A stretch of DNA of 64,000 nt from Chitinophagales bacterium. Its GTDB lineage: Bacteria; Bacteroidota; Bacteroidia; Chitinophagales; JAUHXS01. The position numbers were made by a program, and so were the translations under genes. Below, piece after piece: positions 17,458 through 36,357 of the stretch. The stretch lies in the NCBI GenBank assembly GCA_965213575.1, contig CBDBZN010000037.1, forward strand, positions 67,835-131,834, in the 5' to 3' direction. Position 1 is the first letter of the stretch. Each line of letters opens with the position of its first letter. The notes beneath the pieces were generated by a model. That model made no database searches, had not been told where the DNA came from, and saw only the letters and a program-made list of their open reading frames with translations.

Positions 17458-17473
17458 TTTATAACTTTTAAAC

Positions 17474-19492: not shown

Positions 19493-19499
19493 ATTTTTA

Positions 19500-19526: not shown

Positions 19527-19996
19527 TAAAATAATGCTTCAAACAGATACTCAGCTAATTTATAAGCTACATAAACACACAATCCTATTACAACTATTAT
19601 TCCTATCATTATAGCGATAATTATTCCATTTCCTGAGCCTTGATGTTTTCCTTCTTCGTAATGCTCTTTAAGTAATCTGACATTTCTGTCATTTGCTTTA
19701 AAAAATATATCGAAAACACTACCCAATAGCGGTACGCTGCTAATAACGGCATCTAAAAAAACATTTACTAGCATTTTAATTACCAACTTTCTGCTTGCAC
19801 CATAAGTATGCATCTGCCATACTAGCATTAAAGATACTCCGGTTGTAACAATATCTCCTGCGGCCGGAATTAAACTCAAAATTGGATCAAGGCCAAACTT
19901 TACTTTAGTACCCGGAATGGTGAATTTTGAATCCATTAATTTAGAAATGGAACTAAGTAACCTATATCTTTTACTTTCTTGAGGAGCTTTTTGCAT
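19526..19996 (-). CDS. DUF4112-like small membrane protein
   Basis: 156 aa. The conserved stretch FGLDPILSLIPAAGD is typical of that family (recalled from memory). C-terminal TM helix. Confidence 0.6.
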   Translation of the reverse strand: MQKAPQESKRYRLLSSISKLMDSKFTIPGTKVKFGLDPILSLIPAAGDIVTTGVSLMLVWQMHTYGASRKLVIKMLVNVFLDAVISSVPLLGSVFDIFFKANDRNVRLLKEHYEEGKHQGSGNGIIIAIMIGIIVVIGLCVYVAYKLAEYLFEALF

Positions 19997-20003
19997 TAAA
20001 TAT

Positions 20004-20249
20004 TTAAATTGAGCGTTTGTAGAAATTTTTATACCAGATATATCCTATGATCATAAATAATATATAAGGCATTATAAACAGATACAAAATACCCATATTC
20101 AGGCCTAAGGCAGCTGTACTGGATTCTTCCAAAGATTTTTCTGCAGTACCCTTACACATAGCACATTGAGACCAGGAATTGTTAACTATTAATAACAGCG
20201 ATATTACTATTGAGACAATAGACAAACTATATTTTTTTACTCTCAGCAT
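20004..20249 (-). CDS. Small membrane protein with a CAMC motif (hypothetical)
   Basis: 81 aa. Signal/TM segment, QCAMCKG, then a second TM helix. Lies 7 nt upstream of the DUF4112 gene on the same strand. Confidence 0.5.
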   Translation of the reverse strand: MLRVKKYSLSIVSIVISLLLIVNNSWSQCAMCKGTAEKSLEESSTAALGLNMGILYLFIMPYILFMIIGYIWYKNFYKRSI

Positions 20250-20346
20250 AATATTACAAAGTTACGATATTACTATTTAAACTTTTTATACTTGATAAAA
20301 TTATTAATATATGAGAATAAAATACTCAGGCAAAAGTTAATAGATC

Positions 20347-20856
20347 TTAATGATGATGGACTCCACCATCACCGTGAACATGTCCATGATCCAGTTCTTC
20401 TTTCGTAGCAGCTCTTACATCTTTAACAGTGCCTTTAAAATGTAAATCTACACCTGCTAAAGGATGATTAAAATCCATTTTTACATTTTCTGCTTCTACT
20501 TTTTTAATAGTCCCACGCATAGGATTGCCTTCTTGATCTTGCATATCCAGGATTTTTCCTTTCTCTAATATTCCCTCAGGTTCCTTGCCATCTATTTGAA
20601 AAGCATTTCTAGGTAAAGTAACTAAGGCATTAGGATTTACTTCTCCGTATGCATTTTTGGTGATGATTTTGAAATCAAAATCATCACCAGTTTTAAGCCC
20701 CTTTAAATTATCTTCAAATTCTTGTATTAATTGCCCTTTTCCAAATAAGAATACCATCGGGTTATCTTTTGAAGTTTTTTCTATTAAACTTTCATTTTGA
20801 TTTGAGGCATATAGTTTGTAATGAACAGACACTACTGTTTTTTTAGCAATTTGCAT
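20347..20856 (-). CDS. slyD: SlyD-like FKBP-type peptidyl-prolyl isomerase with a His-rich tail
   Basis: VVSVHYKLY...FLFG.GQLI..FE..L.G...GD.F... and a C-terminal HGHVHGDGGVHHH. Confidence 0.8.
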   Translation of the reverse strand: MQIAKKTVVSVHYKLYASNQNESLIEKTSKDNPMVFLFGKGQLIQEFEDNLKGLKTGDDFDFKIITKNAYGEVNPNALVTLPRNAFQIDGKEPEGILEKGKILDMQDQEGNPMRGTIKKVEAENVKMDFNHPLAGVDLHFKGTVKDVRAATKEELDHGHVHGDGGVHHH

Positions 20857-20992
20857 GTATTATTATTGTTTTATTTATGAATCGTTCTAAGGTACAATAA
20901 AAATAAAAAAGCCTAAAACCAGATGACAAGAATCTTTTAGTAATATGATTTTATCGGTAGATAGATATATACAAAAGTAATAATTAAGCACT

Positions 20993-23900
20993 TTATACTT
21001 TCATGCCTATTACGCATACATCATCAACTTGTTCTTTCCCCCCTTGCCAGTTAAGAAAAGTTTTTTTGATGATATAACTTTGAGCTTGTATATCCTCATG
21101 TTGAATACCAGCAAGTAATTTTCTAAAATTACTCAGCTTAAATTTTTTATCCATAGGGCCACCAAATTGATCAACATACCCATCTGTGAACATATATATG
21201 GAATCTCCTTTGTTCAATTGCATTTTATGTAATTTAAAGTCTATATTATTTGCTAATCTTTCGCCATTTATACCCATCTTATCCCCTTTTACTTGAACAA
21301 TTTTATTATTAGTATAAATAAAAACAGGCCTTTGAGCTGAAGCTATTTCTACAGCTCTAGTCTCTATATTAATTTTACAGATACTTATATCCATCCCATC
21401 TTTGGCAATCAATTTTTCTCTATTTTTACGTAAAATTTGCCTGAGTTCTAAATCTAAATAATGTAATATTTGATCAGGTTGCGTACTTTTAATTTGTATA
21501 ATTTTACTTATTAGTATTTCTCCCATCATAGATAAAAATGCACCGGGTACTCCATGCCCTGTACAATCTGCACAAATAACTATAATTTCTTTTGTGTTGC
21601 CTTCAAACCAGTAAAAGTCTCCACTAACAATATCTCTTGGTTGATAGTAAATAAATGATCCTTGCAATAGCTTATTTAACTCCCCAGCTTCTGGAAGAAT
21701 AGCACGTTGGATATGTTTAGCATAACGAATGCTGGACATAATATCTTTATTCTTTTTTTCTAATTCATCTCTTTGATCAGCAATTACCTGCGTTCCTTCT
21801 TCTACTTTACTCTTTAATAGTGCTTTGTATTTATTATGTTGTACATCTCTTATTTTAATGATGGTTATTAGCAAGGATATCACAATAATACTTAGTAACG
21901 TTATAAACCACCATTTTTTCCATATAGGTTTAGCTATAGATATCATTACTTTCTCAGGGTTAGAACACTCGCCATTTTTACTGCATGCCTTTACATAAAA
22001 TGTATAATCTCCATCTTCTACTCTGTACAAGGCTTCTGTAGATTTAGTAGGCTTAGACCACCCTTCATCAAAACCATTTAGTTTATAACGATATGTTATA
22101 TTTTTTGGATCAGCAATATTTATTCCGTTGTAATTGAATTTTAGTTTATATTTTGAATATTTCAAATTCAGTTTATTAGGATTGCGATATACCTTATCAT
22201 TGATTTCCATTGACATTAAGTCAATTGCAGGTGCTTTATTAATTGAAGTATTAAGAGAAGAGTTATAAGTAAAAATGCCATCATTTGTACCCCACCAAAT
22301 CTGTCCATTTTGATCTTTCTCAACAGCTAATTTATTGAATTCTATGTCAGGGAATGTTTGCGTTATAATGTTAAGTGATTTAACTATTATTTTACTTAAA
22401 CCATTCTTATGGCCTACCCATAAGTTTTTATTTAAATCTTCAATTATGCTGTAACAATAATTAGAAAATAGGCCCTGCTCTGTCGTAAATTGAGTAATAG
22501 AATCGTCTACTAAAAATACTCCATCACCTAAAGTTGTTATAACTAACTTATTATCATAAGTTCTATAAATTGAGGTAATATCTATTAATGTGTTTTTAAA
22601 TAATAGTCTTTTTCGGTTCAATAAACCATCTTTATCTACCGTTACTGTTGTGTTGGTAGGGGTTATAACCCACAATTTTTCATTTTGAATGTCATTGAAT
22701 ATAAATTGAATATGATTATGAGGAAGTTTGTTTCTGGTAGTATAGGAATTAACTATTTTATAAGTTTTGTTTAACTGATATAATCCGTTCTTAGTGGCTA
22801 TCCAGTAGTAGCCAAACATTTCATTGATGTGATTTATAGATTTTGACGGCTTATCATTTCGTAACATAATATATCTTATTGATTTATTTGTATCTACAAA
22901 ATATAATCCATCATCACTGGTACCTACTAATGCTCCTTTTGGCGTATTTAGAATTGTAGTAATTTTACTTGGTAAAACAGCGATAGGTTGTAAATCTGAA
23001 TTATCACCTGTTTTAAACAGATGATTGTCTCCGCCAACGTACATTGCTTTATTGTTATAATTTAATGCCGTTATATTTTTTTTATCTTTATCGTCTATCG
23101 GCAAATGAGCAAATGATAAATTGTCAAAAGCCAATAACCCCGAGCCATAACTGCCAACCCATAGATGATTGTCTTTGCTGATGAATATTTTTTGAATATA
23201 AGAAGTGGATGAATTTGTTTTTAATGTTTTAATATTCTCTAAATTATTCTTTTTAATTAACGCTTTGAAAAAACCATCTCCCATAGTAGACCAAACCATC
23301 ATACTATCATGTATTACTATAGAAGTTACCGGATAATCTGATTGATCATTAAATTTAATTAACTCAAATTTTTTATTTAAATGATAAAGCCCTTCTCCGG
23401 CGCCAATCCAAAACCCCTTGTTATGCCCAGGTACAATCGTATTAATTTTTAAAATTGGTGCAAATAATTTATTAATGGTAAGTTTGTTATTACTGAGGGC
23501 AGCTAATTTTAAACCACTATCACATCCTATAAGCCATTCTTTATCATTAAGTGGATGTACTGCGTATATGGTACATTTATGATTAAGAGTAATTAATTGA
23601 TGTTGTGCTGCAGATGAAATCTTTAATATCTGGTTTTGCTGAGCAACAATTATAATAGATTTTTCAAATTCAAATATTTGACTAATTTGAGACTTTAGGT
23701 CGTAATTATATATTTTAAAAGTATCTGTTAATGTTGTAATTTTTCCTTGCTGATGGCCAATCCATAAAACCCCTTTAGAATCTATAAATAAGCTACTAAT
23801 AAAATTTTCTGCTAAACCATCTTTAACAGTAAATACTTTAAATTTTTTACCATCAAATCTTACTAATCCATTCCCTGTACCAATCCACAGATAATTTTTT

Positions 23901-24052
23901 TCATCCTGTACTATATCGTATACATAATCTTCCGGAAGATCGTTATTCTTAGTACCGTATTGTTTATATAAATATTCTTTCTGTAAATCTATATTACTAT
24001 ACCCGGAAATGAAGAAAAGGATTAAAAGCCCTCCTAACAGGAATCTATGCAT
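20993..24052 (-). CDS. Membrane sensor: periplasmic two-component-regulator propeller + Y_Y_Y region, one TM helix, cytoplasmic PP2C (SpoIIE-type) phosphatase
   Basis: 1019 aa. Repeated ...LWIGT.NGL.. propeller blades. The TM helix is WWFITLLSIIVISLLITIIKI. PP2C motifs are SGDFYWF, CADCTGHGVPGAFLSM, DGMDISIC and MFTDGYVDQFGG. Confidence 0.8.
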   Translation of the reverse strand: MHRFLLGGLLILFFISGYSNIDLQKEYLYKQYGTKNNDLPEDYVYDIVQDEKNYLWIGTGNGLVRFDGKKFKVFTVKDGLAENFISSLFIDSKGVLWIGHQQGKITTLTDTFKIYNYDLKSQISQIFEFEKSIIIVAQQNQILKISSAAQHQLITLNHKCTIYAVHPLNDKEWLIGCDSGLKLAALSNNKLTINKLFAPILKINTIVPGHNKGFWIGAGEGLYHLNKKFELIKFNDQSDYPVTSIVIHDSMMVWSTMGDGFFKALIKKNNLENIKTLKTNSSTSYIQKIFISKDNHLWVGSYGSGLLAFDNLSFAHLPIDDKDKKNITALNYNNKAMYVGGDNHLFKTGDNSDLQPIAVLPSKITTILNTPKGALVGTSDDGLYFVDTNKSIRYIMLRNDKPSKSINHINEMFGYYWIATKNGLYQLNKTYKIVNSYTTRNKLPHNHIQFIFNDIQNEKLWVITPTNTTVTVDKDGLLNRKRLLFKNTLIDITSIYRTYDNKLVITTLGDGVFLVDDSITQFTTEQGLFSNYCYSIIEDLNKNLWVGHKNGLSKIIVKSLNIITQTFPDIEFNKLAVEKDQNGQIWWGTNDGIFTYNSSLNTSINKAPAIDLMSMEINDKVYRNPNKLNLKYSKYKLKFNYNGINIADPKNITYRYKLNGFDEGWSKPTKSTEALYRVEDGDYTFYVKACSKNGECSNPEKVMISIAKPIWKKWWFITLLSIIVISLLITIIKIRDVQHNKYKALLKSKVEEGTQVIADQRDELEKKNKDIMSSIRYAKHIQRAILPEAGELNKLLQGSFIYYQPRDIVSGDFYWFEGNTKEIIVICADCTGHGVPGAFLSMMGEILISKIIQIKSTQPDQILHYLDLELRQILRKNREKLIAKDGMDISICKINIETRAVEIASAQRPVFIYTNNKIVQVKGDKMGINGERLANNIDFKLHKMQLNKGDSIYMFTDGYVDQFGGPMDKKFKLSNFRKLLAGIQHEDIQAQSYIIKKTFLNWQGGKEQVDDVCVIGMKV

Positions 24053-24056
24053 ACAC

Positions 24057-25034
24057 TTATTTAGCCGAGATATTCTTGAAACCTATTTGATAATTATATT
24101 TTGGAATACCCCCTATTGGAATCGTGTAAAACGGCAATAATTCACCATATTGATTTGTGATAGAAAACACAACATTATTACTTAATGCAGGTAAGTTTGT
24201 GTTTTTGACAAATTGAATATCTAATGATCCTCCTTTCTCTTCGTCATCAATCTTATGAGTTTGATGTGCCCATAAATTATTCTTTGATATCATAGTAGAT
24301 ATGCCGGGTTTTGTCGGAGAAATAATTCTTATATATCCATCATCGTCCCAATCAAAATTAGCTTGCTTTATCGAAATCACTCGATCATCAATATAAGGAT
24401 AAATGTGAGATATTTCTGTAGGATCATCATGTAGTCGAAAGGAATATTCAAAAGTAAACGCATTGCCGCCTTCTACTGCTATGTTTTCCGTCGGAGATGT
24501 ACTTAAAAAGTAATTATATAAATTACCATCATCTCCTGTTACGCCTTCGCATATTAGTTTAAAAACACGGCCGCCATATTTGGGCGATAATTCTCCTTCT
24601 GAAGGATTAAAAGGGCCGAATGTATACCATTTTCCATCATATTCATCTTCGTTATAAAAAATTTTCTTAGCTAATTGATTACCCGCTTTATAATTTCCTT
24701 TTGGATCAATATTTCTCGAATCTTTATCTGTTATAGTTCCTTTACCTCCGTACACTGCAAATAATGTTCTTGTATCTGCCTCACCTTTTAACTCATCTAT
24801 TTTGCCACTGGTAGAAGGATCAAAAACTCTTATAAATATTGATTTGGTTTGCTCGGCCGGAAGAACAAAGAAAAATACTTGCGAAAAATCGTCATCGCCC
24901 CACCATTTATCCGCCATTTTTCCAAATGTCACTAAATGTGGAATGTTTTCCTCGCTTGCAGGTACAGGTTGGGCAATTATTGCACCATTAAAACAGGCCA
25001 ATGCAAATGTGAAATAAAAATACAATTGGTTCAT
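24057..25034 (-). CDS. Secreted hypothetical protein (no motif recognised)
   Basis: 325 aa. Signal peptide MNQLYFYFTFALACFNGAIIAQP. It sits 4 nt upstream of the sensor-phosphatase gene and 31 nt downstream of the PD40/PKD gene. Confidence 0.6.
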   Translation of the reverse strand: MNQLYFYFTFALACFNGAIIAQPVPASEENIPHLVTFGKMADKWWGDDDFSQVFFFVLPAEQTKSIFIRVFDPSTSGKIDELKGEADTRTLFAVYGGKGTITDKDSRNIDPKGNYKAGNQLAKKIFYNEDEYDGKWYTFGPFNPSEGELSPKYGGRVFKLICEGVTGDDGNLYNYFLSTSPTENIAVEGGNAFTFEYSFRLHDDPTEISHIYPYIDDRVISIKQANFDWDDDGYIRIISPTKPGISTMISKNNLWAHQTHKIDDEEKGGSLDIQFVKNTNLPALSNNVVFSITNQYGELLPFYTIPIGGIPKYNYQIGFKNISAK

Positions 25035-25065
25035 AATTCATTCTATGCTAATAGTATGCCATAAT

Positions 25066-26469
25066 TTACTGCACAACGATTTTCTTAAAACTACAGGTTA
25101 AATTTAGTAATTCGTTTTTTTTGCCATAGCTGCCGACTATTAGCTTTACGTTATACTCACCGTTTGCCACATAGTTATGTGATACTTTTAAACCGTTTTT
25201 ATAATGGCCATCTCCCATATCCCAATAATATTGGTTAGGAGTAAATGGTAAATTTGTTTCAGATGCATCAAAAAAAGCTTCATCAAAAACATTAATATTG
25301 TCTAAAGAATTTATATATGCTTGTTCAAGCTTAATAACAGGCAAATTATAGGAGAGGCTATCTACTGTTATATTAGCCTGAGTATCTATAACTAATAAAG
25401 ATAAATTGTAAGTGCCTGTGTCTTTATAACAATGCTGGACTTTTAAGCCTTGTAATTCTTGCCCATCTCCTGTAGACCATTTGAAAATTAATGGTAGTGT
25501 ATCAGAAAGTGATTGAATGGTGGGTTCAAAAAATTCAAAACAATAACTATCTTTTTGGAACGGTAAACAAGTATCAACATCAGGGAAGTATTTTCTTAAT
25601 GTAAAAATGTCTTCTGAAGCATTCCTATTCGAGGTAAAAAATACTTTTTCAAAGTTTTCACTAGCACAATATCCATATTCGTCAGCTGAAGTATTTATAA
25701 AAGAATCTATTAATTTGGGTTTTTTCCACTCTTCATTTTCTAATGTAGTAAAATATATATCATATCCACCTAGCCCAGGACGATTAGAGGCAAAATATAA
25801 TGCGCCCGATTGGTGTGCAAAAGGATAAATTTCATTAAACTCGCCATTGACTGGATAACCAATGTTTCTGGGCTTTTCCCATTCACCATTTCTATAAAAA
25901 CTAACATATAAATCAAATGCACCCACATCTCTTTTGAGGTCAGCAGAAAAGTATAACGCTTTTCTGTTTTCATCATAAGTTGGATGTAATAAAGAATAAT
26001 CAGGATTATTAAAAGGAAATGGAATTATTATAACTGAATCATCTGTAATATGTGCTTCAAAAATACCTATTGGATTATTTCCAACTACTTTACGAGAATT
26101 GGTGTGCAGGTTTTTATTAAAGAATGCTTTTGTACCTTGTTCACATATAAATATAGGCCCGTCATATAAGTCAGTAGTGAATTCTTTACGATATTTTCCT
26201 TCTGATTGCCATTTACGTTTTAAAGAATCGTATACAGATTCGTAAATATTAGTAAAATTATTGCCTTCTTCATCAGTTACATTTAAGAAGGAGTTGGTTC
26301 TTTTATCGCTGGTATATAATAGTCTGTTGTTGCTTAAAAGACAAGGCGCTGATTCATTATATCCGGGTTTACAAAAATCTAATACTACCGTTTGATAAGT
26401 TGATTGAGCTTTTGAAAATAAAAAGAAAATACTAAGTATTAATGTAACTGATGAAGAGCAAAAGTTCAT
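25066..26469 (-). CDS. Secreted protein with TolB-like PD40 repeats followed by two PKD domains
   Basis: PD40-like repeats are LYFSADLKRDVGAFDLYVS, LYFASNRPGLGGYDIYFT and VFFTSNRNASEDIFT. PKD signatures are WSTGDGQ...HCYKDTGTYNLSLLV and WDMGDGH...HNYVANGEYNVKLIV. Confidence 0.75.
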   Translation of the reverse strand: MNFCSSSVTLILSIFFLFSKAQSTYQTVVLDFCKPGYNESAPCLLSNNRLLYTSDKRTNSFLNVTDEEGNNFTNIYESVYDSLKRKWQSEGKYRKEFTTDLYDGPIFICEQGTKAFFNKNLHTNSRKVVGNNPIGIFEAHITDDSVIIIPFPFNNPDYSLLHPTYDENRKALYFSADLKRDVGAFDLYVSFYRNGEWEKPRNIGYPVNGEFNEIYPFAHQSGALYFASNRPGLGGYDIYFTTLENEEWKKPKLIDSFINTSADEYGYCASENFEKVFFTSNRNASEDIFTLRKYFPDVDTCLPFQKDSYCFEFFEPTIQSLSDTLPLIFKWSTGDGQELQGLKVQHCYKDTGTYNLSLLVIDTQANITVDSLSYNLPVIKLEQAYINSLDNINVFDEAFFDASETNLPFTPNQYYWDMGDGHYKNGLKVSHNYVANGEYNVKLIVGSYGKKNELLNLTCSFKKIVVQ

Positions 26470-26470
26470 T

Positions 26471-27394
26471 TCAAAATATTTTTGGACTACTTGCTTTTAA
26501 TCTGGTTTGAAATTGATAAGAAACGCTTATTTCGTGAGATCCGGACGAAAATGAGCTTATTTCATTAATTGAATGATCGTAAAAATAATAAATATGTAGC
26601 TTATAATTCCATTTATAACCAAATAATCCTACCATTGCAATTCCCGGCCGATAAGTAGTTCCCACTGAGAAGATATCATTAATATTAAGCACGGTAGTAA
26701 AATCAGATTGAATTGGGCTGTTCTTTACATATTTCGTTAAAGATGATAATTGTAGCTCAAAATTTTTATTGATATTAATCATTTTACCAATATTGAATAT
26801 GAAATTATTATTTGCAGGTTTAAAGGATGGTTGAATTAAATTACCTAGCCCGCCGCTGAATCTATAATATAATAAATCCGGCATTGATAATCCTATATAA
26901 AATTTCTGAGTATTGTAAAAAACTCCTAAGCCGAAGTTAGGATACAAATAGTTTGAGTTAGTCGTAAATTCAGCATCTCCTTGTTCATCAAGTAATAAAT
27001 CATTCCATCTTGAATTCTGTAAAACAGCTTTAGCCTTCAGTCCTAATGATACTTTACCTTTTGGTAATATTATTCGATAAGCATAATTGGCTGATAACGC
27101 TGTTCTTTGAGTAGCGCCTATTTCGTCATTAACTAGATTAATCCCTAAGGCCACGTTTTCCTTTTTGAGGGGTGTGTTAAGTAATATTGCTCGGGTAGTT
27201 GGTGCACCGGGCATGTCTACCCATTGGGTCCTATATATAATATTTCCGGTTAAAGCATTTGTTTCTCCTATTTGAGCCGGGTTATATAGAGCGCCATTTA
27301 TGAAGTAGCTGCTTATTAAGGGAATATGCTCCTGGCCAATTACCAACTGTATGGTCAATAAAAAGATGCATAGACTATATAGTAATTTCATCAT
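26471..27394 (-). CDS. PorP/SprF-family type IX secretion system membrane protein
   Basis: 307 aa. YNPAQIG...YRTQWVDMPGAPTT...GINLVNDEIGATQRTALSANYAYRI matches the PorP/SprF signature. It starts 2 nt after the stop of the type-B-CTD adhesin. Confidence 0.85.
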   Translation of the reverse strand: MMKLLYSLCIFLLTIQLVIGQEHIPLISSYFINGALYNPAQIGETNALTGNIIYRTQWVDMPGAPTTRAILLNTPLKKENVALGINLVNDEIGATQRTALSANYAYRIILPKGKVSLGLKAKAVLQNSRWNDLLLDEQGDAEFTTNSNYLYPNFGLGVFYNTQKFYIGLSMPDLLYYRFSGGLGNLIQPSFKPANNNFIFNIGKMININKNFELQLSSLTKYVKNSPIQSDFTTVLNINDIFSVGTTYRPGIAMVGLFGYKWNYKLHIYYFYDHSINEISSFSSGSHEISVSYQFQTRLKASSPKIF

Positions 27395-27396
27395 AA

Positions 27397-30300
27397 TTAA
27401 TATTTTACAACTACATATCCATTATATATCAGATCCAATTCAGAAACTTTCAAAATATAATGATAAGTATCTGGGGCAATTTTTTTACCATTCATATTAG
27501 TACCATCCCATGTGCCTAAATATTGATCAGTTTCATAAACTAGGTGCCCCCATCTATTAAAGATCTGCAAATTAGCACTGGGAACATTTTCTAAACCCCT
27601 AACTACGAAATTATCATTTATTTGATCAAAATTAGGAGAAAATCCTTCAGGAATATAAAGATCTTCAACTAGTACCTCTACATCATCAAAAATAACTTCA
27701 CAAGGCCCATTTTCTATTATCCATCTAAAAATATTTACCCCTACTGACAAATTGATAACTTGTAAATTTGGTTCATATATGTTAAGCAGCTCTGCAGAAC
27801 CCTCAATAATTTCCCAATGGCCTTCAAAAGGATTTTCCGGAGTATTGGCAATAACATCTGTTTCAAATAAATAATACAAAGTTTTATCCATGCCGGCATC
27901 TACTTCATTGGGCTGCTCATGAAAAGATATAGTTACACTATCACTATCTGCACAAAAGACATTATTTTCTGTCCATACAAAATTGTATGTGGTGTATTGG
28001 TTAGCAATTACATTATAATCTGTAGAATCATAATTAACTTCGTCCGGGATTTGCCAAGTGCTCATACCTACACTTGGAAATGGTTCTAGCTGAGTGGCTA
28101 ATCCGCATATATCTTTGTCTTCTCCTGCATTCGCCACAGGATTTTCAAGTACCGTAACTCGAAAAGAATCAGTTAAATTTTTTGATATACATCCATTTGC
28201 GTCCTCTAATTCTTTGATTGTGTATATTTTACTTTGTGCTGGTATAACAGTAAAACTATGGGTATCAGCTTCTATCTCCTCAAAATTAAAAATATTATCT
28301 CCGGTTGCATACTGTATATTAAAAGGAGCGAGTCCTGATATATTATTAGATGATAATAAGATACTGTCCCCTTGGCATATTGAATCATTACCTTCAAAAT
28401 CTGCATTGGGATTGTCATTAACGGATATGTATAATTCTGTGCTAATAGATGTATCGCATACGCTGGATGTAATTTTTCTTCGCAAATGAATAGGATTGGA
28501 AATAACAGGAAGATTATAAAATTGATCTCGACTGCTTCCCAAAGCTGATTCAAAATTTATGCCATCGCTACTCTTTTCCCATTGATACGAATAAGAATTG
28601 TCACCCCCACTGCCGGTAGAGCCGTCATATAAAGTGTTACTAGTTCCTTTACATAATTCATCAGGGCCTTCAATAGTATTATTTGTTATAGGTAAATAGA
28701 CAACTATAACCGCCGTGTCACTGGTGTTTTGGGGGCAATTGATTGATCTAACTATTCTCCTGAAATAAGTCGTCTCATCGATACTATTAGTTATATAATG
28801 CTGTAGTGAATCTGCTCCGGGAGCTGCTGTAAAATTGGTAGGGGTTATGCCAAATTCCCAAGAGTAAATATAATTGCTATCTCCACCCATTGGAAGAGAG
28901 CCAGATAAGACTAGCGCTGAGTCTTCGCTACACAATGTATCATTTCCTGAAATTGTATTATCAGAAATTGTTGCAGTAGTTATCAATTGCACGGTATTAC
29001 TATAAGAAGTTAGACAATTTCCAGATGTAGCCACTCTTCTATAATATTTTGTAATAAGAGAGTCTGTCATTGTTATGGGGGGAAGATAATTTTGATCTGT
29101 ATTATTAAAAGTTATATCGGCAAAACCTGTATCGTTTGAATCTATTTCCCACATCCAAACAATTTGTCCATTTCCTCCCGAAGGCTTATTGCCTAAGAAT
29201 GTATCCGGCATAATACCGGAACAAATAGTTTGATCGGCGGAAATGATATTATTAGTAAGAGATGGATAAACATTAATAGTTATTAGATTACTAATTGATG
29301 AATCACAAGTGGAGGAGTAAACTATTCTTCTGAACGAAGTTGTATCGGATAAAGTACCCGGGTGATAATCTTCTTGGTCATTAGATCCGGTAGCAGAATA
29401 AAAAGTTATTCCATCTGCACTGGCTTGCCATAAATAAGTAAAAGCATTATCTCCGCCGGCGGGACTACTACCGCGCAGGGTATCAGGACTTAAATCTGAA
29501 CAGATAGTTTGATCAGCCGAAATGGTATTACCGGTGATAGGCGGTTGCACAGAAATTTGCACAGTATCGCTAAAAGAGGTATCACAAGTAGAAGAAGTAA
29601 CAATTCTTCGGTAATAAGTGGTATCTGTTAAGATACCGGGGACATAATCGGTATTGGTAGAAGTTCCAATTGCTGTAATATAATTAATGTTATCAAGGCT
29701 TTGTTGCCACAAGAAAGCATGACTTCCATCACCACCGGTAGGAGAGGTGCCCGTTAAAACCGACGGCGTATGTCCTGAGCAGATAGTTTGATCAGCCGAA
29801 ATGGTATTACCGGTGATAGGCGGTTGCACAGAAATTTGCACAGTATCGCTAAAAGAGGTATCACAAGTAGAAGAAGTAACAATTCTTCGGTAATAAGTGG
29901 TATCTGTTAAGATGTCGGGGGCATAATCGGAATTATTAGAAGTTCCAACTGCTGTACTATAATTAATGTTATCAAGGCTTTGTTGCCACAAGAAAGCATG
30001 ACTTCCATCACCACCTATTGGATCACTACCCGATAAGGCTGACGGCGTATGTCCTGAACAGATAGTTTGATCAGCCGAAATGGTATTACCGGTGATAGGC
30101 GGTTGCACAGAAATTTGCACAGTATCGCTAAAAGAGGTATCACAAGTAGAAGAAGTAACAATTCTTCGGTAATAAGTGGTATCTGTTAAGACGCCGGGGG
30201 CATAATCGGTATTGGTAGAAGTTCCAATTGCTGTAATATAATTAATGTTATCAAGGCTTTGTTGCCACAAGAAAGCATGACTTCCATCACCACCGGTAGG

Positions 30301-32619
30301 AGAGGTGCCCGTTAAAACCGACGGCGTATGTCCTGAGCAGATAGTTTGATCAGCCGAAATGGTATTACCGGTGATAGGCGGTTGCACAGAAATTTGCACA
30401 GTATCGCTAAAAGAGGTATCACAAGTAGAAGAAGTAACAATTCTTCGGTAATAAGTGGTATCTGTTAAGATGCCGGGGGCATAATCGGAATTATTAGAAG
30501 TTCCAACTGCTGTACTATAATTAATGTTATCAAGGCTTTGTTGCCACAAGAAAGCATGACTTCCATCACCACCTATTGGATCACTACCCGATAAGGCTGA
30601 CGGCGTATGTCCTGAACAGATAGTTTGATCAGCCGAAATGGTATTACCGGTGATAGGCGGTTGCACAGAAATTTGCACAGTATCGCTAAAAGAGGTATCA
30701 CAAGTAGAAGAAGTAACAATTCTTCGGTAATAAGTGGTATCTGTTAAGACGCCGGGGGCATAATCGGAATTATTAGAAGTTCCAACTGCTGTACTATAAT
30801 TAATGTTATCAAGGCTTTGTTGCCACAAGAAAGCATGACTTCCATCACCACCTATTGGATCACTACCCGATAAGGCTGACGGCGTATGTCCTGAACAGAT
30901 AGTTTGATCAGCCGAAATGGTATTACCGGTGATAGGCGGTTGCACAGAAATTTGCACAGTATCGCTAAAAGAGGTATCACAAGTAGAAGAAGTAACAATT
31001 CTTCGGTAATAAGTGGTATCTGTTAAGACGCCGGGGGCATAATCGGAATTATTAGAAGTTCCAACCGCTGTACTATAATTAATATTATCAGGACTTTGTT
31101 GCCAATTATAGACATAATTACCATCACCACCGGTAGGAGAGGTGCCTGTTAAAGGTGCCGGCGTATTACCTGAGCAAATAGTTTGATCAGCCGAAATGGT
31201 ATTATCGGTAATAGGCGTACATTCCCCAATTCTACCTGCAAAAATATTATAATTATTAGAACTATTGAAATCAATGCTATCAAAAGATATATCACTACTA
31301 AAAGCCCCACAAACATATATGTTATCATCTGCCCCTACACTAATACCATAACCTTCTTCCCTACCGCCTCCTGCAGCTCCTTTAACCCAATTTAAAGTTC
31401 TATCAGGGTTATAGCATGCGACAAAAATATCCCTATTAGAGCCACCTGTTCCAGATAGAATTGTACCACTAAAATTAGTATTTCCTATGTAATCACCGAT
31501 AACATAAATTTTACCATCGGGAGCTAAATCAATATCATAACCCCAGCCTAAGTTATTGCTCTTAGCCGTTACTACCCAATCTGTATTGCCATTGTCCAAA
31601 GCATGCTTAGAAAGAAAAAAATCCTCTTCTGAAAGGCCATTAACATCAGGATGGCCCGGAAATTTTGCTTTGTCGTAAATATAACCTGAGATATATACCC
31701 CATCCGAATTTGCTGCTATGGCAAATGCTTCGTCATTTTTATTACCATTTCTGCCAATACTCTTTGCCCATCTAAAAGTGCCCTCATTAGTATAAGATGC
31801 TAAATATATTTGTGTAAATTCATCATCATTATTTGTTAACTCAAAAGTTGTCCCATTAAAACTTATGGTTTCACTACGATAATTACCTACTATATAAACA
31901 TTATCTTCATATGCAGTCAATACCCACGTTTCATCCTCCTCATCTCCACTTCCAACTGACCGCAGCCAGTCTACCGTTCCGCTTGAATTTATTTTTAGCA
32001 TGTAGCAATCTGAGCTGCCTAAGCTGGAAAGTGTTTGTCCCTGGAACGATAACCCTCCCCAAAATGTACCACAAACATATACATCGGATCCGTTTACTAC
32101 AACGCTATAGCCAATTCCGTAATTGCTTATACCTTGTACCACCCACTGCAATATTCCTGAGGAATTATATTTTGCTATAAATACATCTCTAGAACCACCA
32201 GCGCATGTTAAAAAATAATCTGGCCCTCCTAAGCCTTTGAAATTTGCTGTCCCTCTAAATGCTCCGGTTATATATACATTTCCTACATCGTCTGTAGTTA
32301 TCTCAATTGCTACATCATCTTCATCACCTCCAATTTTAAAGGCAGAAAGTACATTGCCATTGGCATCGTATCGAGCAACAAATGCATCTGCTCCACCATA
32401 AGTGTTCTTTAAACTATCACCATAAGAAGATGATAAATCACCTGCAAAAGTTCCACAAACATAAGTCGTATTAGTAGTGGCATCATACGCTATTTCGTAA
32501 GCAAGTTCAACTGAAGCGGTGCTAGCCTGCTTAACCCACTGCCAAGGAGGAGCTTGTGCATAGCTAGTGATAGGAAGTATAAGTATAAAATAAATAATAA
32601 GCCTTCCTACAAAATTCAT
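27397..32619 (-). CDS. Giant T9SS adhesin: SBBP beta-propeller repeats, 10 tandem 93-aa Cys-containing domains, further Ig-like domains, gliding-motility (type B) C-terminal domain
   Basis: Frame open to 32643. The ATG at 32619 gives signal peptide MNFVGRLIIYFILILPITSYAQA. SBBP-like blades (GGDEDDVAIEITTDDVGNVYITGAF...). The repeat domain is ISADQTICSG..P..L.G..P.GGDG...Y.WQ.S.D...Y....G.....Y.P..L.DTTYYRR.V.S..C. The C-terminus is PEGFSPNFDQINDNFVV...IFNRWGHLVYE...WDGTNMNGKKIAPDTYHYIL. Confidence 0.9.
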   Translation of the reverse strand: MNFVGRLIIYFILILPITSYAQAPPWQWVKQASTASVELAYEIAYDATTNTTYVCGTFAGDLSSSYGDSLKNTYGGADAFVARYDANGNVLSAFKIGGDEDDVAIEITTDDVGNVYITGAFRGTANFKGLGGPDYFLTCAGGSRDVFIAKYNSSGILQWVVQGISNYGIGYSVVVNGSDVYVCGTFWGGLSFQGQTLSSLGSSDCYMLKINSSGTVDWLRSVGSGDEEDETWVLTAYEDNVYIVGNYRSETISFNGTTFELTNNDDEFTQIYLASYTNEGTFRWAKSIGRNGNKNDEAFAIAANSDGVYISGYIYDKAKFPGHPDVNGLSEEDFFLSKHALDNGNTDWVVTAKSNNLGWGYDIDLAPDGKIYVIGDYIGNTNFSGTILSGTGGSNRDIFVACYNPDRTLNWVKGAAGGGREEGYGISVGADDNIYVCGAFSSDISFDSIDFNSSNNYNIFAGRIGECTPITDNTISADQTICSGNTPAPLTGTSPTGGDGNYVYNWQQSPDNINYSTAVGTSNNSDYAPGVLTDTTYYRRIVTSSTCDTSFSDTVQISVQPPITGNTISADQTICSGHTPSALSGSDPIGGDGSHAFLWQQSLDNINYSTAVGTSNNSDYAPGVLTDTTYYRRIVTSSTCDTSFSDTVQISVQPPITGNTISADQTICSGHTPSALSGSDPIGGDGSHAFLWQQSLDNINYSTAVGTSNNSDYAPGILTDTTYYRRIVTSSTCDTSFSDTVQISVQPPITGNTISADQTICSGHTPSVLTGTSPTGGDGSHAFLWQQSLDNINYITAIGTSTNTDYAPGVLTDTTYYRRIVTSSTCDTSFSDTVQISVQPPITGNTISADQTICSGHTPSALSGSDPIGGDGSHAFLWQQSLDNINYSTAVGTSNNSDYAPDILTDTTYYRRIVTSSTCDTSFSDTVQISVQPPITGNTISADQTICSGHTPSVLTGTSPTGGDGSHAFLWQQSLDNINYITAIGTSTNTDYVPGILTDTTYYRRIVTSSTCDTSFSDTVQISVQPPITGNTISADQTICSDLSPDTLRGSSPAGGDNAFTYLWQASADGITFYSATGSNDQEDYHPGTLSDTTSFRRIVYSSTCDSSISNLITINVYPSLTNNIISADQTICSGIMPDTFLGNKPSGGNGQIVWMWEIDSNDTGFADITFNNTDQNYLPPITMTDSLITKYYRRVATSGNCLTSYSNTVQLITTATISDNTISGNDTLCSEDSALVLSGSLPMGGDSNYIYSWEFGITPTNFTAAPGADSLQHYITNSIDETTYFRRIVRSINCPQNTSDTAVIVVYLPITNNTIEGPDELCKGTSNTLYDGSTGSGGDNSYSYQWEKSSDGINFESALGSSRDQFYNLPVISNPIHLRRKITSSVCDTSISTELYISVNDNPNADFEGNDSICQGDSILLSSNNISGLAPFNIQYATGDNIFNFEEIEADTHSFTVIPAQSKIYTIKELEDANGCISKNLTDSFRVTVLENPVANAGEDKDICGLATQLEPFPSVGMSTWQIPDEVNYDSTDYNVIANQYTTYNFVWTENNVFCADSDSVTISFHEQPNEVDAGMDKTLYYLFETDVIANTPENPFEGHWEIIEGSAELLNIYEPNLQVINLSVGVNIFRWIIENGPCEVIFDDVEVLVEDLYIPEGFSPNFDQINDNFVVRGLENVPSANLQIFNRWGHLVYETDQYLGTWDGTNMNGKKIAPDTYHYILKVSELDLIYNGYVVVKY
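28430..31215 (-). repeat. Tandem array of about 10 x 279-nt (93-codon) units inside the adhesin gene; six units are near-identical
   Basis: The anchor word c(a/g)a(a/t)atagtttgatc(a/g)gc(c/g)gaaatg recurs at 29222, 29501, 29780, 30059, 30338, 30617, 30896 and 31175, exactly 279 nt apart. Units below 29500 are progressively diverged. Confidence 0.9.
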
Positions 32620-33048
32620 ATATTTATCATTCACATAAATCATACCAGCTACCTAAATAAGAGCTTTTAGATTACTAAGGATCAAAATCAGTTAGTAATA
32701 AACTTACTTATACGCTGATGCGACATTAATTGTTACATTTATAATTCATAAAAATTTCTTCTATATAAATATAGCTTATATTTATATCAGAAAAAAATAA
32801 AACACTAATGTCGTTGTTTACCTATTTACTAAGGCTACAGTTTTATATAGATGCAAACTACCTGATTTATACTATAAAAGAAAATTAACGACATTATATT
32901 TTCATTATAATATTATAAATAATTGCAAAAATTTATAATAAAATGATATATAATAAATTTTACTTAATTGGGTAAAATATACCTCTTAAGTATAAAAATA
33001 CCCAATAGTAGATGAATAGATGGTAGGAGATTAATTAATAACCTTTAA

Positions 33049-33645
33049 TTAATTACTTTTAAAAGCTGCAATATTTTTCTGTACATATTTACCTAAAATA
33101 TCAAATTCAATATTTACAAGTTGATTAATTTGAAGATTTTTAAAGTTCGTATGCTCATAGGTATATGGAATAATTGCTACTGAAAAATGGTTATTGGAGA
33201 CATTATAGGCCGTTAAGCTAACACCGTTGATACAAATAGAACCTTTTTCTACCATTAAAAGTTGAAAAGATGAAGGTAAGTTAAAAACGAATTCCACGCT
33301 GCCGCCTTTATCAATCATGTCTACACATTCTACGACAGTATCTACATGCCCCTGCACCATATGCCCATCTAACCTACTTTGAATGGTAACTGACCTTTCT
33401 AAGTTGACAAAGTCATTTTCTTTTAGATGGCCGATAACAGTTTTCTGAAGTGTCTCCTGGATTGCAGTAACGGTATGAGTATGTTTCTTAACATCAACTA
33501 CTGTTAAGCAAACACCATTATGCGCTACACTTTGGTCGATTTTAAGCTCAGGTGAAATATCAGATTTTATATGAATATGAATATTAGAGCCATCTTCAAC
33601 GACCGCTTTGACTTCTCCTAGTGCTTCTATAATACCCGTAAACAA
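33049..33645 (-). CDS. ribE: Riboflavin synthase (alpha chain)
   Basis: MFTGIIE...G; two lumazine-binding repeats (…VAHNGVCLTV… / …ICINGVSLTA…). 198 aa. Confidence 0.9.
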   Translation of the reverse strand: MFTGIIEALGEVKAVVEDGSNIHIHIKSDISPELKIDQSVAHNGVCLTVVDVKKHTHTVTAIQETLQKTVIGHLKENDFVNLERSVTIQSRLDGHMVQGHVDTVVECVDMIDKGGSVEFVFNLPSSFQLLMVEKGSICINGVSLTAYNVSNNHFSVAIIPYTYEHTNFKNLQINQLVNIEFDILGKYVQKNIAAFKSN

Positions 33646-33648
33646 ATA

Positions 33649-36357
33649 TTAATTTTTATCGCCTCGTAAAATATGAATATAGCCTTTGAGCGGCTTTTCA
33701 CGTTTTATAATTCCTTCTAATCTGGTTTCATAAACGTCACATCCATAATAGTAAACTCCTTCTACTAATTCTTTGCCATTTTTGTCTGTGCCATTCCAAT
33801 TAATTTCAGGGTCTGAAGTTTCAAATAATAATTGGCCCCATCTGTTAAACACTTGAAAATCTACATGATCTATGAATCTAAATTTAAATACACCATTTAC
33901 TTTATAAGGGGTATATAAATCATTTTGTCCATCTCCATTTGGCGTAAACACATTAGGCAGGTCATATATCGGACAATTATCTACACATTTTTTCTGTGTA
34001 ATTCTACTTTCATTATTATTAGAATCCACTGCTGTGATCATATAACATCCCGCTACTGAATTAAATAAGTTTGCATGAACGTATATACTATCATCTGCCG
34101 GCAACTGAGTAGCAATAATTTGAGAATCTGCAGTAAACGTAGGGGCGTAATAAATATTATAAAACAATACATCTTCGGCGCAAGAGTCTGAGGGGTCAAC
34201 CCAATTTAAAGTATTTTTAAAATTAGCAGCTACCCATGGTATCTCCGGAATGATGTCGCAGTTATTTATCACTTCTAAAATAGGCTCACAAGGCGGAATA
34301 TTATCTACCGGTGCTTTGCAAACTATTTGTGAATTATTAATCAATGTATCTACCTCATCTGTTCCATAAGTACCTATACTTTGAATATAATAGCAGTAAA
34401 TGCTGTCGTTCTTTAAGCCTTTATCTACATAGGTGCTAACTGTTACCGTATCTAATGGAAAATAATTGTTTCCAACGACTTCTTTTTTAAAGATTACATA
34501 CTGATCATTAAACCAAGGCACATCCTCTTGCCAAGAAAGAATTAAGCGATTATCTGTGGGCTCAATAGTGAGGTAAACAGAAGAGGCAGGTTCTGTTTCA
34601 CCAAGTAAAGTGCCATTATTAACATAAAATTCCAGTAAATAGTAATATTGGTTATCGACAGTATTGATTGTGCTATCTAAAAAAGCTGTGTCGTTAAAAG
34701 TATTATAAGTAGGTGCAGTGAAAGATTTTATTTCTGTGTAGGTGCCGGCTGCATTTGTTTTTCTATAAATTTTATATTCATATGGGCCCGGGTTTTGAAT
34801 AGTGTCTAAATCTTCACGTTTGGGCTTCAGCCAAGCAATTTGTATTTTTCCATTTATTGAATCCGTCTCCGTAACCGTCACATGGGTAATGACCGGAATG
34901 TCTTGTTTCAATTGTTCGCAAACCTCATTAGATGGCAAACTTTCTACTTTATTATAAGGGAAATTACCACCACCGTCAGCAAACCCCGCCGTTACCCTAT
35001 AACAATATTCAAAACCAATTTCTACATCCTTATCTTCATAAGTATGTTCATCAATACCTATCGCTATAGCAGTATAACCTAAGTCGGCTAAATTGACAGG
35101 ACATTTACCGCTAAAAGTATCTCCTGACCCTAACTTTCTCCAGATAGTAAATCCTTGAAACTTTGTGGAAGAGAAACATTCGTATGGATTATCCCAATTT
35201 AAAATTATTCTTCCGGTCAATGCAGTTGCCGTCAAATTTTCAGGGGGTGGGGCGACAACAGTAATCAGCCATGTTTCTAAGTCAGCAAGTGGCTTTAAGT
35301 TTCCTCCCTGCACAAAATTATCTTCTGCTTTAAAAACTACTTCATAAAAAAATTTCCTTACGTGATCACAAGTCGTTTGCCAAGAAAATTGCCCGGTGAT
35401 AGAATCAGTACCCATAATAGTATTAAAATTAGCAGGATTAGGACTCACTTCTAAAGGGCCACCTTCTGCACTTAAAGTGATAACTTGCCCTATATTAGGA
35501 TCTGTCGCAGTGACTGAAATATTCAGTAATTCGCCTGCTATGACACAGGTATCGTTTATTTCTTTAACATCAGGCGGAAGATTTGCTACATCCAGTACAA
35601 TTATCTGCATGTCTCTTAAAAGGGTACCTATTAAAAATCCATTCCTATATTCTGAGATTAAGATGGCAATGTTATATATTCCTTCTACCTTGGGGCTTGC
35701 CCATTCCAACTCGCCTGTAATAGCATCAATCATAATATTATTATTTGGCCCCGGGCCCACCTCATCAGGGTATAAATAATTAGGCACGTCTGCATTAGCG
35801 TTTTGTTTAGGAATAATCAACTGATAGGAAAGGCTATCCCCATCTGAATCGAAAGCATTAGGATTATGTTTAAAAATAGTATTCACATTGGCATAATCTA
35901 ATGGTGGTTGGAGTAAAACCGGAGAATTATTGAATCCGAAGAATTGTGGGTCTAAGACAATTAATTCTGTTTCTACATAAAAGGGAATATTGACTGAGCC
36001 TCCATCATTTACATTGATAATGGAAGCAATTCTATTAGCATCAACGATAGATAATGTGTAGCTGGATGGGCCCGGATATGTATGGGTGGCGCTATATTCG
36101 TTACGTTTTACGTCATCTGCTAAGATAACTTCTTCGATTCGGGGAATAAATTGCGATTGACCATCTCCCCAAAACAATTCCAAAGAATCTCGATCAGCCG
36201 GACTGGATTCTTTAGTATAGGTTACCACAGTAACTTCGAATTTAAAATTAGATATTTGTTTATAAGTAATTTCTCCTGCTCTGTTATGGGTTGCAAAGGC
36301 TATGGAAAATGTAAAAAAACTGAAAAGCGTACTTAATAGTATATCTTTAAAGCGCAT
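33649..36357 (-). CDS. T9SS-secreted surface protein with Ig/FN3-like domains and a gliding-motility (type B) C-terminal domain
   Basis: 902 aa with a signal peptide. The C-terminus is PNVFTPNGDGQNDLYTP...VFNRWGQLLFE...WNGTDKNGKELVEGVYYY...GYIHILR. Confidence 0.85.
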   Translation of the reverse strand: MRFKDILLSTLFSFFTFSIAFATHNRAGEITYKQISNFKFEVTVVTYTKESSPADRDSLELFWGDGQSQFIPRIEEVILADDVKRNEYSATHTYPGPSSYTLSIVDANRIASIINVNDGGSVNIPFYVETELIVLDPQFFGFNNSPVLLQPPLDYANVNTIFKHNPNAFDSDGDSLSYQLIIPKQNANADVPNYLYPDEVGPGPNNNIMIDAITGELEWASPKVEGIYNIAILISEYRNGFLIGTLLRDMQIIVLDVANLPPDVKEINDTCVIAGELLNISVTATDPNIGQVITLSAEGGPLEVSPNPANFNTIMGTDSITGQFSWQTTCDHVRKFFYEVVFKAEDNFVQGGNLKPLADLETWLITVVAPPPENLTATALTGRIILNWDNPYECFSSTKFQGFTIWRKLGSGDTFSGKCPVNLADLGYTAIAIGIDEHTYEDKDVEIGFEYCYRVTAGFADGGGNFPYNKVESLPSNEVCEQLKQDIPVITHVTVTETDSINGKIQIAWLKPKREDLDTIQNPGPYEYKIYRKTNAAGTYTEIKSFTAPTYNTFNDTAFLDSTINTVDNQYYYLLEFYVNNGTLLGETEPASSVYLTIEPTDNRLILSWQEDVPWFNDQYVIFKKEVVGNNYFPLDTVTVSTYVDKGLKNDSIYCYYIQSIGTYGTDEVDTLINNSQIVCKAPVDNIPPCEPILEVINNCDIIPEIPWVAANFKNTLNWVDPSDSCAEDVLFYNIYYAPTFTADSQIIATQLPADDSIYVHANLFNSVAGCYMITAVDSNNNESRITQKKCVDNCPIYDLPNVFTPNGDGQNDLYTPYKVNGVFKFRFIDHVDFQVFNRWGQLLFETSDPEINWNGTDKNGKELVEGVYYYGCDVYETRLEGIIKREKPLKGYIHILRGDKN

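Follow-up and report, generated by a model that had tools for sequence, protein, structure and literature searches.

The known regulation of the T9SS (type IX secretion system), through PorXY-SigP, concerns expression of the machinery itself, and we know of no account of how Bacteroidota sense the state of the surface proteins that the system displays. The closest described relatives of the locus reported here are operons in which a type B cargo gene is followed by genes for a PorP(SprF)-like and a PorE-like protein, namely Fjoh_3952-3951-3950 of Flavobacterium johnsoniae and PG1035-PorP-PorE of Porphyromonas gingivalis. Both an interaction of PorP with PorE and static, wall-anchored type B cargo complexes have been published, and the published model has PorP-like proteins anchoring the cargo, with PorE-like partners that attach the complex to the wall and render it static (PMC9143113, PMC12618676). 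PorE itself is an essential T9SS component (PMC12773672). Here we analysed a 64,000-nucleotide stretch of DNA from a Chitinophagales bacterium (GenBank assembly GCA_965213575.1, contig CBDBZN010000037.1, positions 67,835 to 131,834 of the forward strand; hereafter the window). In it, five genes, which we call G1 to G5, share the triplet order of these operons (G1-G2-G3) but add two further conserved genes, one for an exported protein of an unannotated family (G4) and one for a sensor phosphatase (G5). The papers on type B operons mention neither a phosphatase nor a G4-like gene (PMC9143113, PMC12618676), in agreement with a first-pass annotation of the window, made from its sequence, which had placed the last two genes outside known T9SS cargo clusters. 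A full-text literature search for work linking the T9SS with PP2C, SpoIIE, RsbU or SiaC found nothing relevant.

G5 also has described relatives. Its periplasmic part is homologous to the sensors of Bacteroides hybrid two-component systems (HTCS) of the BT4663 type (PDB 4A2L/4A2M, 3V9F), with Reg_prop propellers and a Y_Y_Y domain followed by a transmembrane helix. Unlike these, G5 lacks the HisKA-HATPase-receiver-AraC cassette and has only a SpoIIE/PP2C domain after the helix, and in the genome it is paired with a T9SS cargo cluster and G4 instead of a polysaccharide utilisation locus. The closest relative of its linker and PP2C domain is SiaA of the SiaABCD system of Pseudomonas aeruginosa, which controls aggregation and biofilm. 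In that system SiaB phosphorylates T68 of SiaC, which lies in the peptide LLYLNTSSIK, and SiaA removes the phosphate, as part of a partner-switch mechanism (PMC7647112). Whereas SiaA receives its input through two transmembrane helices and a HAMP domain, the input region of G5 is an HTCS-type double propeller with Y_Y_Y, and neither the module nor the 64-kb window has a siaB, siaC or siaD (GGDEF) gene.

The five genes lie on the minus strand at 20993-32643, separated by 2, 1, 31 and 4 nt; the list of open reading frames (ORFs) in six frames reproduced exactly the packing given by the first-pass annotation. Together with the synteny described below, this packing suggests that they form one conserved functional module, and co-transcription is predicted from it. 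We lean, by a little, towards the view that the module is an envelope-spanning signalling relay built on the anchoring complex of T9SS type B cargo. Its features are as follows.

32644..33048, minus strand: 405-nt AT-rich intergenic region upstream of G1, presumed promoter region (ORF map)
27397..32643, minus strand: G1, 1748-aa T9SS cargo with a C-terminal domain (CTD) of type B, putative Ig-repeat adhesin (Pfam/NCBIfam)
29496..31217, minus strand: Ig_7 tandem repeats of G1, 6.2 copies of a 279-nt (93-aa) unit, 93% matching, about aa 476-1049 (TRF score 2931, Ig_7, 279-nt periodicity)
27406..27654, minus strand: C-terminal sorting domain (type B) at aa 1664-1746 of G1 (CHU_C, TIGR04131)
26471..27394, minus strand: G2, 307-aa PorP/SprF-family outer-membrane protein (TIGR03519, signal peptide, C-terminal Phe)
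25066..26469, minus strand: G3, 467-aa exported protein with a PD40 beta-propeller and two PKD domains (Pfam, NF053607, NF052230)
24057..25034, minus strand: G4, 325-aa exported protein of an unannotated family (signal peptide, profile searches, AlphaFold2 model)
20993..24052, minus strand: G5, 1019-aa inner-membrane sensor phosphatase (Pfam, NCBIfam, PDB matches, reading of the transmembrane segment)
21917..24052, minus strand: periplasmic sensor of G5, aa 1-712, Reg_prop beta-propellers and Y_Y_Y (4A2L/4A2M, 3V9F)
21842..21916, minus strand: transmembrane helix of G5, about aa 713-737 (Kyte-Doolittle maximum 2.7)
20999..21589, minus strand: cytoplasmic PP2C/SpoIIE phosphatase of G5, SiaA type, aa 822-1018 (SpoIIE, NF038263, 6K4E)

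G1 to G4 each carry a cleavable signal peptide with Gln at +1. The 405-nt region is presumed to hold the promoter of the cluster because it is the only sizeable non-coding gap.

Conservation of the gene order was examined across genomes. In a scan that took a single genome for each species, at least 533 genomes had a G4 relative, and 80 loci were retrieved; the comparison set comprised 83 loci without duplicates, drawn from different species by way of G4 and annotated by phmmer with the window proteins as queries. The complete order cargo-PorP-G3-G4-G5 was present in 59 of the 83 (71%), so the linkage proposed in the first-pass annotation is conserved, and G5 came next after G4 in 77 of the 82 loci where this could be tested, mostly with gaps of -4 to +30 nt and commonly with stop-start overlaps of 1 or 4 nt (ATGA/TAATG type). 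Carriers belong to the Flavobacteriales (Crocinitomicaceae, Cryomorphaceae, Parvicellaceae, Fluviicola, Sanyastnella) and to the Bacteroidales/Marinilabiliaceae (Natronoflexus, Breznakibacter, Plebeiibacterium, Saccharicrinis). Flanking genes vary between these lineages, and in Sanyastnella coralliicola, Natronoflexus pectinivorans and two unclassified Bacteroidota genomes the same five-gene order is bordered by unrelated genes. Chance falls far short of explaining an arrangement whose order recurs between unrelated flanks in dozens of divergent genomes. If the adjacency had no functional meaning, a signalling pair having come by chance to lie downstream of a T9SS cargo cluster, the promoter and terminator scans would be silent as they are (they are silent either way), and a substrate that is not encoded locally would be no surprise. 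Such an accident does not account for an order kept in so many divergent loci, for the many start/stop overlaps, or for G4 identities of only 53-63%, which point to deep divergence. The synteny data effectively refute it, and we regard it as very improbable.

Other loci depart from the full order. About eight of the 83 have G4-G5 alone among housekeeping neighbours (tRNA_edit, ABC ATPase, GrpE, Crp), five have a giant OmpA-bearing G3 followed by G4-G5 with no cargo or PorP gene, and three or four (L031, L036, L070 and probably L028) have cargo-PorP-G3-G4 without G5. Judged from these variants, G4 is always accompanied by G3, G5 or both. Since G4-G5 pairs exist with no cargo, PorP or G3 nearby, the pair can be autonomous, and this favours an explanation in which G4-G5 is a self-contained periplasmic sensor of a ligand such as a glycan, with G4 as the binding protein. 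It would regulate the adjacent cargo-PorP-PorE-like operon, as Bacteroidota regulators sit beside their targets, with no relay from the outer-membrane complex. The same loci also argue the other way: G4 keeps all its motifs beside cargo-PorP-G3 where G5 is missing, the five G3-G4-G5 triplets lack cargo and PorP, and the full order, held in 71% of loci over two orders, is tighter than the usual adjacency of regulator and target. We consider an autonomous sensor possible, if on the unlikely side. G4 proteins from loci without G5 and from loci without G3 retained all conserved columns in both classes, so a test for class-specific motif loss does not discriminate between a relay from the outer-membrane complex and an autonomous sensor.

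The comparison yielded further arrangements around the module. In a Bacteroidales-type sublineage, the cargo gene is directly preceded, on its own strand, by the gene for a sensor of about 1230 aa (an unannotated N-terminal region of about 950 aa, then HAMP, HisKA and HATPase), giving a six-gene cluster with a second sensor (at about 1-3900 in L004, L006, L007, L010, L013, L015, L017, L018, L020, L022, L027, L041, L043, L045, L047, L068, L075, L083 and L087). In some Flavobacteriales, a second type B CTD protein of about 1175 aa and a 658-766-aa protein with a G3-like propeller are encoded just after G5, or after G4 in L028 (L030 14146-20722, L038 14131-20948, L069 9258-15972, L028 5667-12575). 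One metagenome-assembled genome (CBDFGG01) has two G4 paralogues, one in a cargo-cargo-PorP-G3-G4 cluster without a phosphatase and one in a G3-G4-G5 cluster without cargo or PorP (L070 and L081).

The first three genes have the character of a cargo anchoring complex. G1 was described by the first-pass annotation as an SBBP adhesin with a type B CTD, and the second part of this description holds. The CTD lies at the extreme C-terminus (aa 1664-1746 of 1748) and scored 52.3 bits with TIGR04131 (cut-off 35) and 77.5 bits with CHU_C (cut-off 27). The SBBP label found no support, as PF06739 gave no match. The body of G1 consists of 6.2 near-identical 93-aa Ig_7 repeats. The N-terminal 475 aa or so contain borderline beta-propeller repeats, with a DUF5122 score of 26.4 bits that falls under the 27-bit cut-off, and direct reading of the sequence gives a Sec signal peptide, MNFVGRLIIYFILILPITSYA, cleaved before Q (..SYA/Q). 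Export of G1 by the T9SS via its type B CTD is therefore a strongly supported prediction; its putative function as an adhesin is read from the Ig-repeat architecture. The six 279-nt repeats at 93% identity point to recent repeat expansion, and their copy number in a metagenome assembly may be collapsed or mis-estimated.

G2 is a full-length member of the PorP/SprF family, as the first-pass annotation had it (TIGR03519, 215.4 bits, cut-off 90.55, aligned over positions 2-292 of a 292-position profile; PF11751, 199.9 bits). Its gene lies 2 nt from the type B cargo gene, and cargo and PorP genes are adjacent in all loci with a complete module. These data strongly support G2 as the probable cognate outer-membrane partner of G1, acting as shuttle or anchor. 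A second type B CTD protein of 902 aa (33649-36357, minus strand; CHU_C 59.5 bits) is encoded beyond the riboflavin synthase gene upstream of the module. No separate PorP/SprF gene goes with it, its CTD shares 35% identity with the CTD of G1, and it might use G2 as a shuttle too.

G3 is strongly supported as a PorE-like protein, predicted to be a periplasmic propeller/PKD protein. The PD40 domain (29.2 bits) and two PKD domains named in the first-pass annotation were found by Pfam, and G3 aligned to positions 143-407 of the PorE profile. It stayed far below the equivalog cut-offs of NF052230 (83.3 bits, cut-off 600, E 1e-23) and NF053607 (105.2 bits, cut-off 620, E 3e-30), and only its propeller region aligned with the PorE and CHU_0125 OmpA-like models. 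In contrast to the described operons, whose general logic of adhesin, cognate PorP/SprF and PorE-like protein it otherwise follows as first annotated (PMC9143113, PMC12618676), the module has a third protein with two PKD domains but with neither an OmpA_C peptidoglycan-binding domain by Pfam nor a lipobox as lipoprotein signal. It had been proposed that the PKD domains replace OmpA. G3-like ORFs are bimodal (n = 77), with 48 short (OmpA in 0 of 48) and 29 long (OmpA in 26 of 29), and the window G3 is of the short class. Because the long forms keep PKD and add OmpA, and the short class simply lacks OmpA, PKD is not a substitute for OmpA, and we rejected this proposal.

The likeness of G3 to PorE, as an essential T9SS component (PMC12773672), would also fit a different role for the last three genes, in which G3, G4 and G5 assist in secreting, anchoring or turning over the cargo, the phosphatase acts on a component of the T9SS, the gliding machinery or the envelope, and G4 is structural or enzymatic. 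This we consider improbable. The module is absent from the model T9SS organisms with described type B operons (PMC9143113, PMC12618676), and because of this absence it is not a general requirement for secretion. Further evidence on such a role is given with G4 and with the output of G5.

G5 had been described as a propeller/Y_Y_Y surface sensor with a SpoIIE-type phosphatase. Its domains bear this out (Reg_prop 69 bits, Y_Y_Y 42.5 bits, SpoIIE, and one strong internal transmembrane segment), with the correction that the sensor is predicted to be periplasmic, of the HTCS type, and not at the cell surface. The periplasmic half matched 4A2L/4A2M with E 5.6e-33 and 3V9F with E 8e-28. The linker, a coiled coil preceding the phosphatase domain, and the PP2C domain together matched the NCBIfam SiaA model NF038263 with E 1e-53 over its C-terminal 277 positions (380-656), and the sole PDB match of the PP2C domain was 6K4E, the phosphatase domain of P. 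aeruginosa SiaA (E 5e-34). The alignment with 6K4E showed the metal-binding motifs GDFY, DCTGHG, TDGYVDQ and VDD to be intact. As a whole, G5 scored 182.9 bits with the SiaA equivalog, under the 700-bit cut-off, and does not have its input architecture of two transmembrane helices and HAMP; the best non-self match to G5 was 35% identical. Because of the 4A2L-type sensor homology, the match to SiaA and 6K4E and the conserved metal-binding motifs, there is strong support for G5 as an HTCS-type periplasmic sensor driving a SiaA-type phosphatase that is predicted to be catalytically competent. The homology of its sensor to HTCS domains that bind oligosaccharides counts in favour of an autonomous ligand sensor. 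In one locus (L085 4459-11180), a 29%-identical paralogue of G5 is encoded directly after two proteins with type A CTDs (Por_Secre_tail), with no G4, and propeller/Y_Y_Y/PP2C sensors may accompany T9SS cargo genes more broadly.

No other member of the module is as conserved as G4. Across the loci, median identity to the protein of the window was 58% for G4, compared to 43% for the PP2C domain, 40% for the CTD, 29-33% for G3, 30% for PorP and 28% for the G5 sensor, and G4 relatives are 57-64% identical across Flavobacteriales, Marinilabiliales and Bacteroidales. The protein, with its signal peptide ..IIA/QPVP, had been noted as lacking any recognisable motif, and we likewise found no family match in Pfam or NCBIfam and no match of its profile to PDB sequences. 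A protein collection clustered at 90% held 3,680 relatives, all hypothetical and without a Pfam domain. Within the family, the acidic motifs GDDDF, GDDGNLY and NFDWDxDG are invariant, and the last would fit the DxDxDG pattern of calcium loops. An AlphaFold2 model built from a 30-sequence alignment (pLDDT 77.8, pTM 0.76) is all-beta, with two sandwich domains and with N- and C-terminal tails that are conserved but modelled at low confidence. Foldseek, which the first-pass annotation had suggested for this protein, returned weak, generic tandem beta-sandwich or jelly-roll matches from the PDB (TM-score at most 0.26). The faint resemblance to carbohydrate-handling tandem beta-sandwiches (PNGase F) would suit an autonomous glycan sensor. 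The conservation and the invariant acidic clusters also fit an enzyme or a Ca2+-dependent structural protein, as an accessory role would have it, yet G4 matched no enzyme family and no catalytic fold.

Distant relatives suggest what the G4 domain does. An exhaustive profile search of 1.84 billion cluster representatives retrieved 693 clusters. In the distant ones among them, the domain lies N-terminal to 6-16 PKD domains or C-terminal to Big_1/invasin/TIG arrays and, in one case (P0244, L090), forms the extracytoplasmic part of a BlaR1-type Peptidase_M56 transducer beside a BlaI-type (Penicillinase_R) repressor gene. A PKD-fused relative adjoins a HAMP histidine kinase and a FecR/LysM protein, and a Big_1-fused relative adjoins a GAF-GGDEF protein. 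Because of these fusions and signalling neighbours, there is strong support for the G4 domain as a binding or sensory head outside the cytoplasm that has served as input to signal-transduction proteins again and again, as judged by homology and gene context. Its use as the sensor head of BlaR1-type and other signalling proteins would be expected of an autonomous sensor. On the other hand, the fusions of the G4 domain with PKD suggest a physical tie to PKD-bearing proteins such as G3, and seem to echo the PKD domains that end G3, which argues against a sensor independent of the outer-membrane complex.

In the BlaR1/BlaI-type pair the G4 domain is thus the signal input of an M56 transducer, whereas the window encodes G4 as a separate protein, with a PP2C sensor rather than an M56 protease as transducer. 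LuxP-LuxQ, TorT-TorS and ChvE-VirA, sensors that depend on a periplasmic binding protein, offer a further comparison. As in these, G4 is a separately encoded exported protein, its gene lies directly upstream of that of a membrane sensor, and it is proposed to gate the output. Unlike them, G4 is a tandem beta-sandwich and not a Venus-flytrap binding protein, the output is a phosphatase and not a kinase, and the G4-G5 interaction is itself a proposal.

The likely output of G5 was sought in SiaC-like proteins. ORFs of the SiaC family (PF09345) lie within the module, on the same strand, in 4 of the 83 loci (L011, L058, L023 and L044), with Pfam scores of 103-127 bits (cut-off 24.5). They are found directly upstream of G4 (L011), between G3 and G4 (L058) and directly upstream of the cargo gene (L023, L044, L058). 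They share a conserved YFNT(S/A)T motif, which aligns with the SiaC peptide from P. aeruginosa (PMC7647112). In a further locus (L088), a 29%-identical paralogue of G5 is preceded by genes for a DUF6272 protein and a SiaC protein (PF09345), which we used as probes. These data support a SiaC-family phosphoprotein as the probable substrate of G5. The assignment rests on homology and on synteny in a minority of loci, because SiaC is found in only 4 of 83 loci and not in the window. Neither Pfam, applied to ORFs of at least 100 aa that are not inside longer ORFs, nor phmmer and profile searches of the six-frame translation found STAS, SiaC, DUF6272 or GGDEF genes in the 64-kb window. SiaB/DUF6272 and STAS probes run against the window and the loci matched only at L088, the STAS part being a weak test; no SiaB-like kinase gene is linked to the orthologous loci, DUF6272 being found only beside the L088 paralogue. 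The partner-switching-type output that had been proposed for G5 is supported specifically by its SiaA-type phosphatase domain and by the SiaC genes in four loci and beside a paralogue; substrate and kinase genes are missing from the module in the window.

The specifically SiaA-like output of G5 and the SiaC genes embedded in some modules do not suit a purely structural or secretory role for G3, G4 and G5, and neither do the G4-G5 pairs with no T9SS gene nearby; G5 paralogues that adjoin type A CTD cargo genes (L085) are on its side. An accessory role of this kind and chance adjacency are both less likely than an autonomous sensor.

Other signalling genes were observed near G5 or its relatives. 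In L011 (14137-19507, Crocinitomicaceae), G5 is followed by genes for a TPR protein, a PAS-HisKA-HATPase-REC-Hpt hybrid kinase, a single-domain receiver and two SiaC proteins, a gene set that suggests cross-talk between a phosphorelay and the SiaC switch. In the window, a 136-aa RsbW/SpoIIAB-like serine kinase (17474-17884, plus strand; HATPase_c_2 88 bits) is encoded 3.1 kb from G5, directly after a 1124-aa DUF4175 protein and before ybeY (region 14083-17884, plus strand). It is a possible kinase counterpart of the phosphatase; as a conserved companion of G5 it was rejected, with the linkage found in 0 of 84 other loci.

How might an envelope-spanning relay built on the type B cargo anchoring complex work? 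G4 would be a periplasmic co-sensor or adaptor of G5, reporting either what state the outer-membrane complex of G1-G2-G3 is in or a ligand that this complex has captured. A conformational change would then pass through the single transmembrane helix and the coiled coil to the G5 phosphatase, which would dephosphorylate a SiaC-family protein encoded elsewhere in the genome, at the threonine of YxNT(S/A)(S/T). The partner switch would flip and alter adhesion, aggregation or biofilm-type behaviour, or expression of the cluster itself. Signalling might run in either direction, with the state of the adhesin driving the phosphatase or the sensor regulating the adhesin. A narrower form of this relay, in which the load, ligand or occupancy of PorP-held cargo passes from G3 to G4, G5 and the SiaC switch, so that the module is a surface-state sensor for T9SS-anchored adhesins, is a speculative and rather unlikely version.

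Several observations weigh against a relay from the anchoring complex. The eight or so G4-G5 pairs lack cargo, PorP and G3, and the second type B cargo gene of the window has no G4-G5 pair with it. SiaC is embedded in few of the orthologous loci, and SiaC, STAS and SiaB/DUF6272 are lacking from the window. The weak fold matches of G4 give no indication of a ligand. The loci were sampled through G4, which gives no fraction of type B cargo clusters that have G4-G5. Finally, promoter and terminator scans were at chance level, so a single transcript is not supported by these scans. Counts from a sigma-70-type promoter and terminator scan of 19400-33800 equalled the shuffled expectation, and the Bacteroidota -7 motif TAnnTTTG occurred 81 times against 97 expected, none of them in the 405-nt region upstream of G1, in which no consensus promoter motif was identified. 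The 136-nt spacer downstream of G5 gave a folding z-score of 0.46, with no terminator.

The building blocks of the module are of known kinds, namely a type B cargo/PorP/PorE-like operon, an HTCS sensor and a SiaA-type PP2C phosphatase. The way in which these are conserved together, and the G4 family as the link between them, are undescribed in the searchable literature and lie outside Pfam and NCBIfam. To our knowledge, Bacteroidota largely lack cyclic di-GMP outputs, and the module would extend the SiaA/SiaC partner-switch paradigm into this phylum. Across more than 500 species it appears to tie an anchoring complex of cargo, PorP and PorE-like proteins to a sensor phosphatase whose class governs aggregation in Pseudomonas, which makes it a candidate for outside-in signalling of interest to T9SS and biofilm research. 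G4 is nominated as a new extracytoplasmic sensory domain, found on BlaR1-type transducers and on PKD/Ig stalks. If the module does relay the surface state of the adhesin, no earlier pathway that senses contact or adhesion across the envelope would have been tied to the T9SS, and G4 would be the founding member of a new family of extracytoplasmic sensory domains in use across phyla. Experiments are feasible, since the module is present in isolates that have been cultured (Sanyastnella coralliicola, Natronoflexus pectinivorans, Breznakibacter xylanolyticus and Plebeiibacterium marinum).

In the window, the module is bordered upstream by a riboflavin synthase gene (33049-33645) and, 136 nt downstream of G5, by a gene for a SlyD-like FKBP isomerase. 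Rfam and tRNA scans of the window gave no matches. By its BipA protein, at about 80% identity, the organism falls with uncultured Flavobacteriales close to Cryomorphaceae, Owenweeksia and Vicingaceae. Two paralogues of about 535 aa (30% identical) with type A T9SS tails (Por_Secre_tail) are encoded at 3993-5600 and 6589-8190 on the plus strand, and the first has a CHU_C-like, type B-like segment (aa 340-414) immediately ahead of its type A tail, an unusual tandem of sorting-domain types. Five small ORFs of 170-205 aa with no Pfam match follow on one strand at 8471-11847 (plus), among them two paralogue pairs (8471-9052 and 9161-9778, 40% identity; 10063-10605 and 11284-11847, 42%). On the minus strand, the window also encodes an IS200/Y1-type transposase (39858-40289) and a tyrosine recombinase with XerC/D-like domains (47527-48423).

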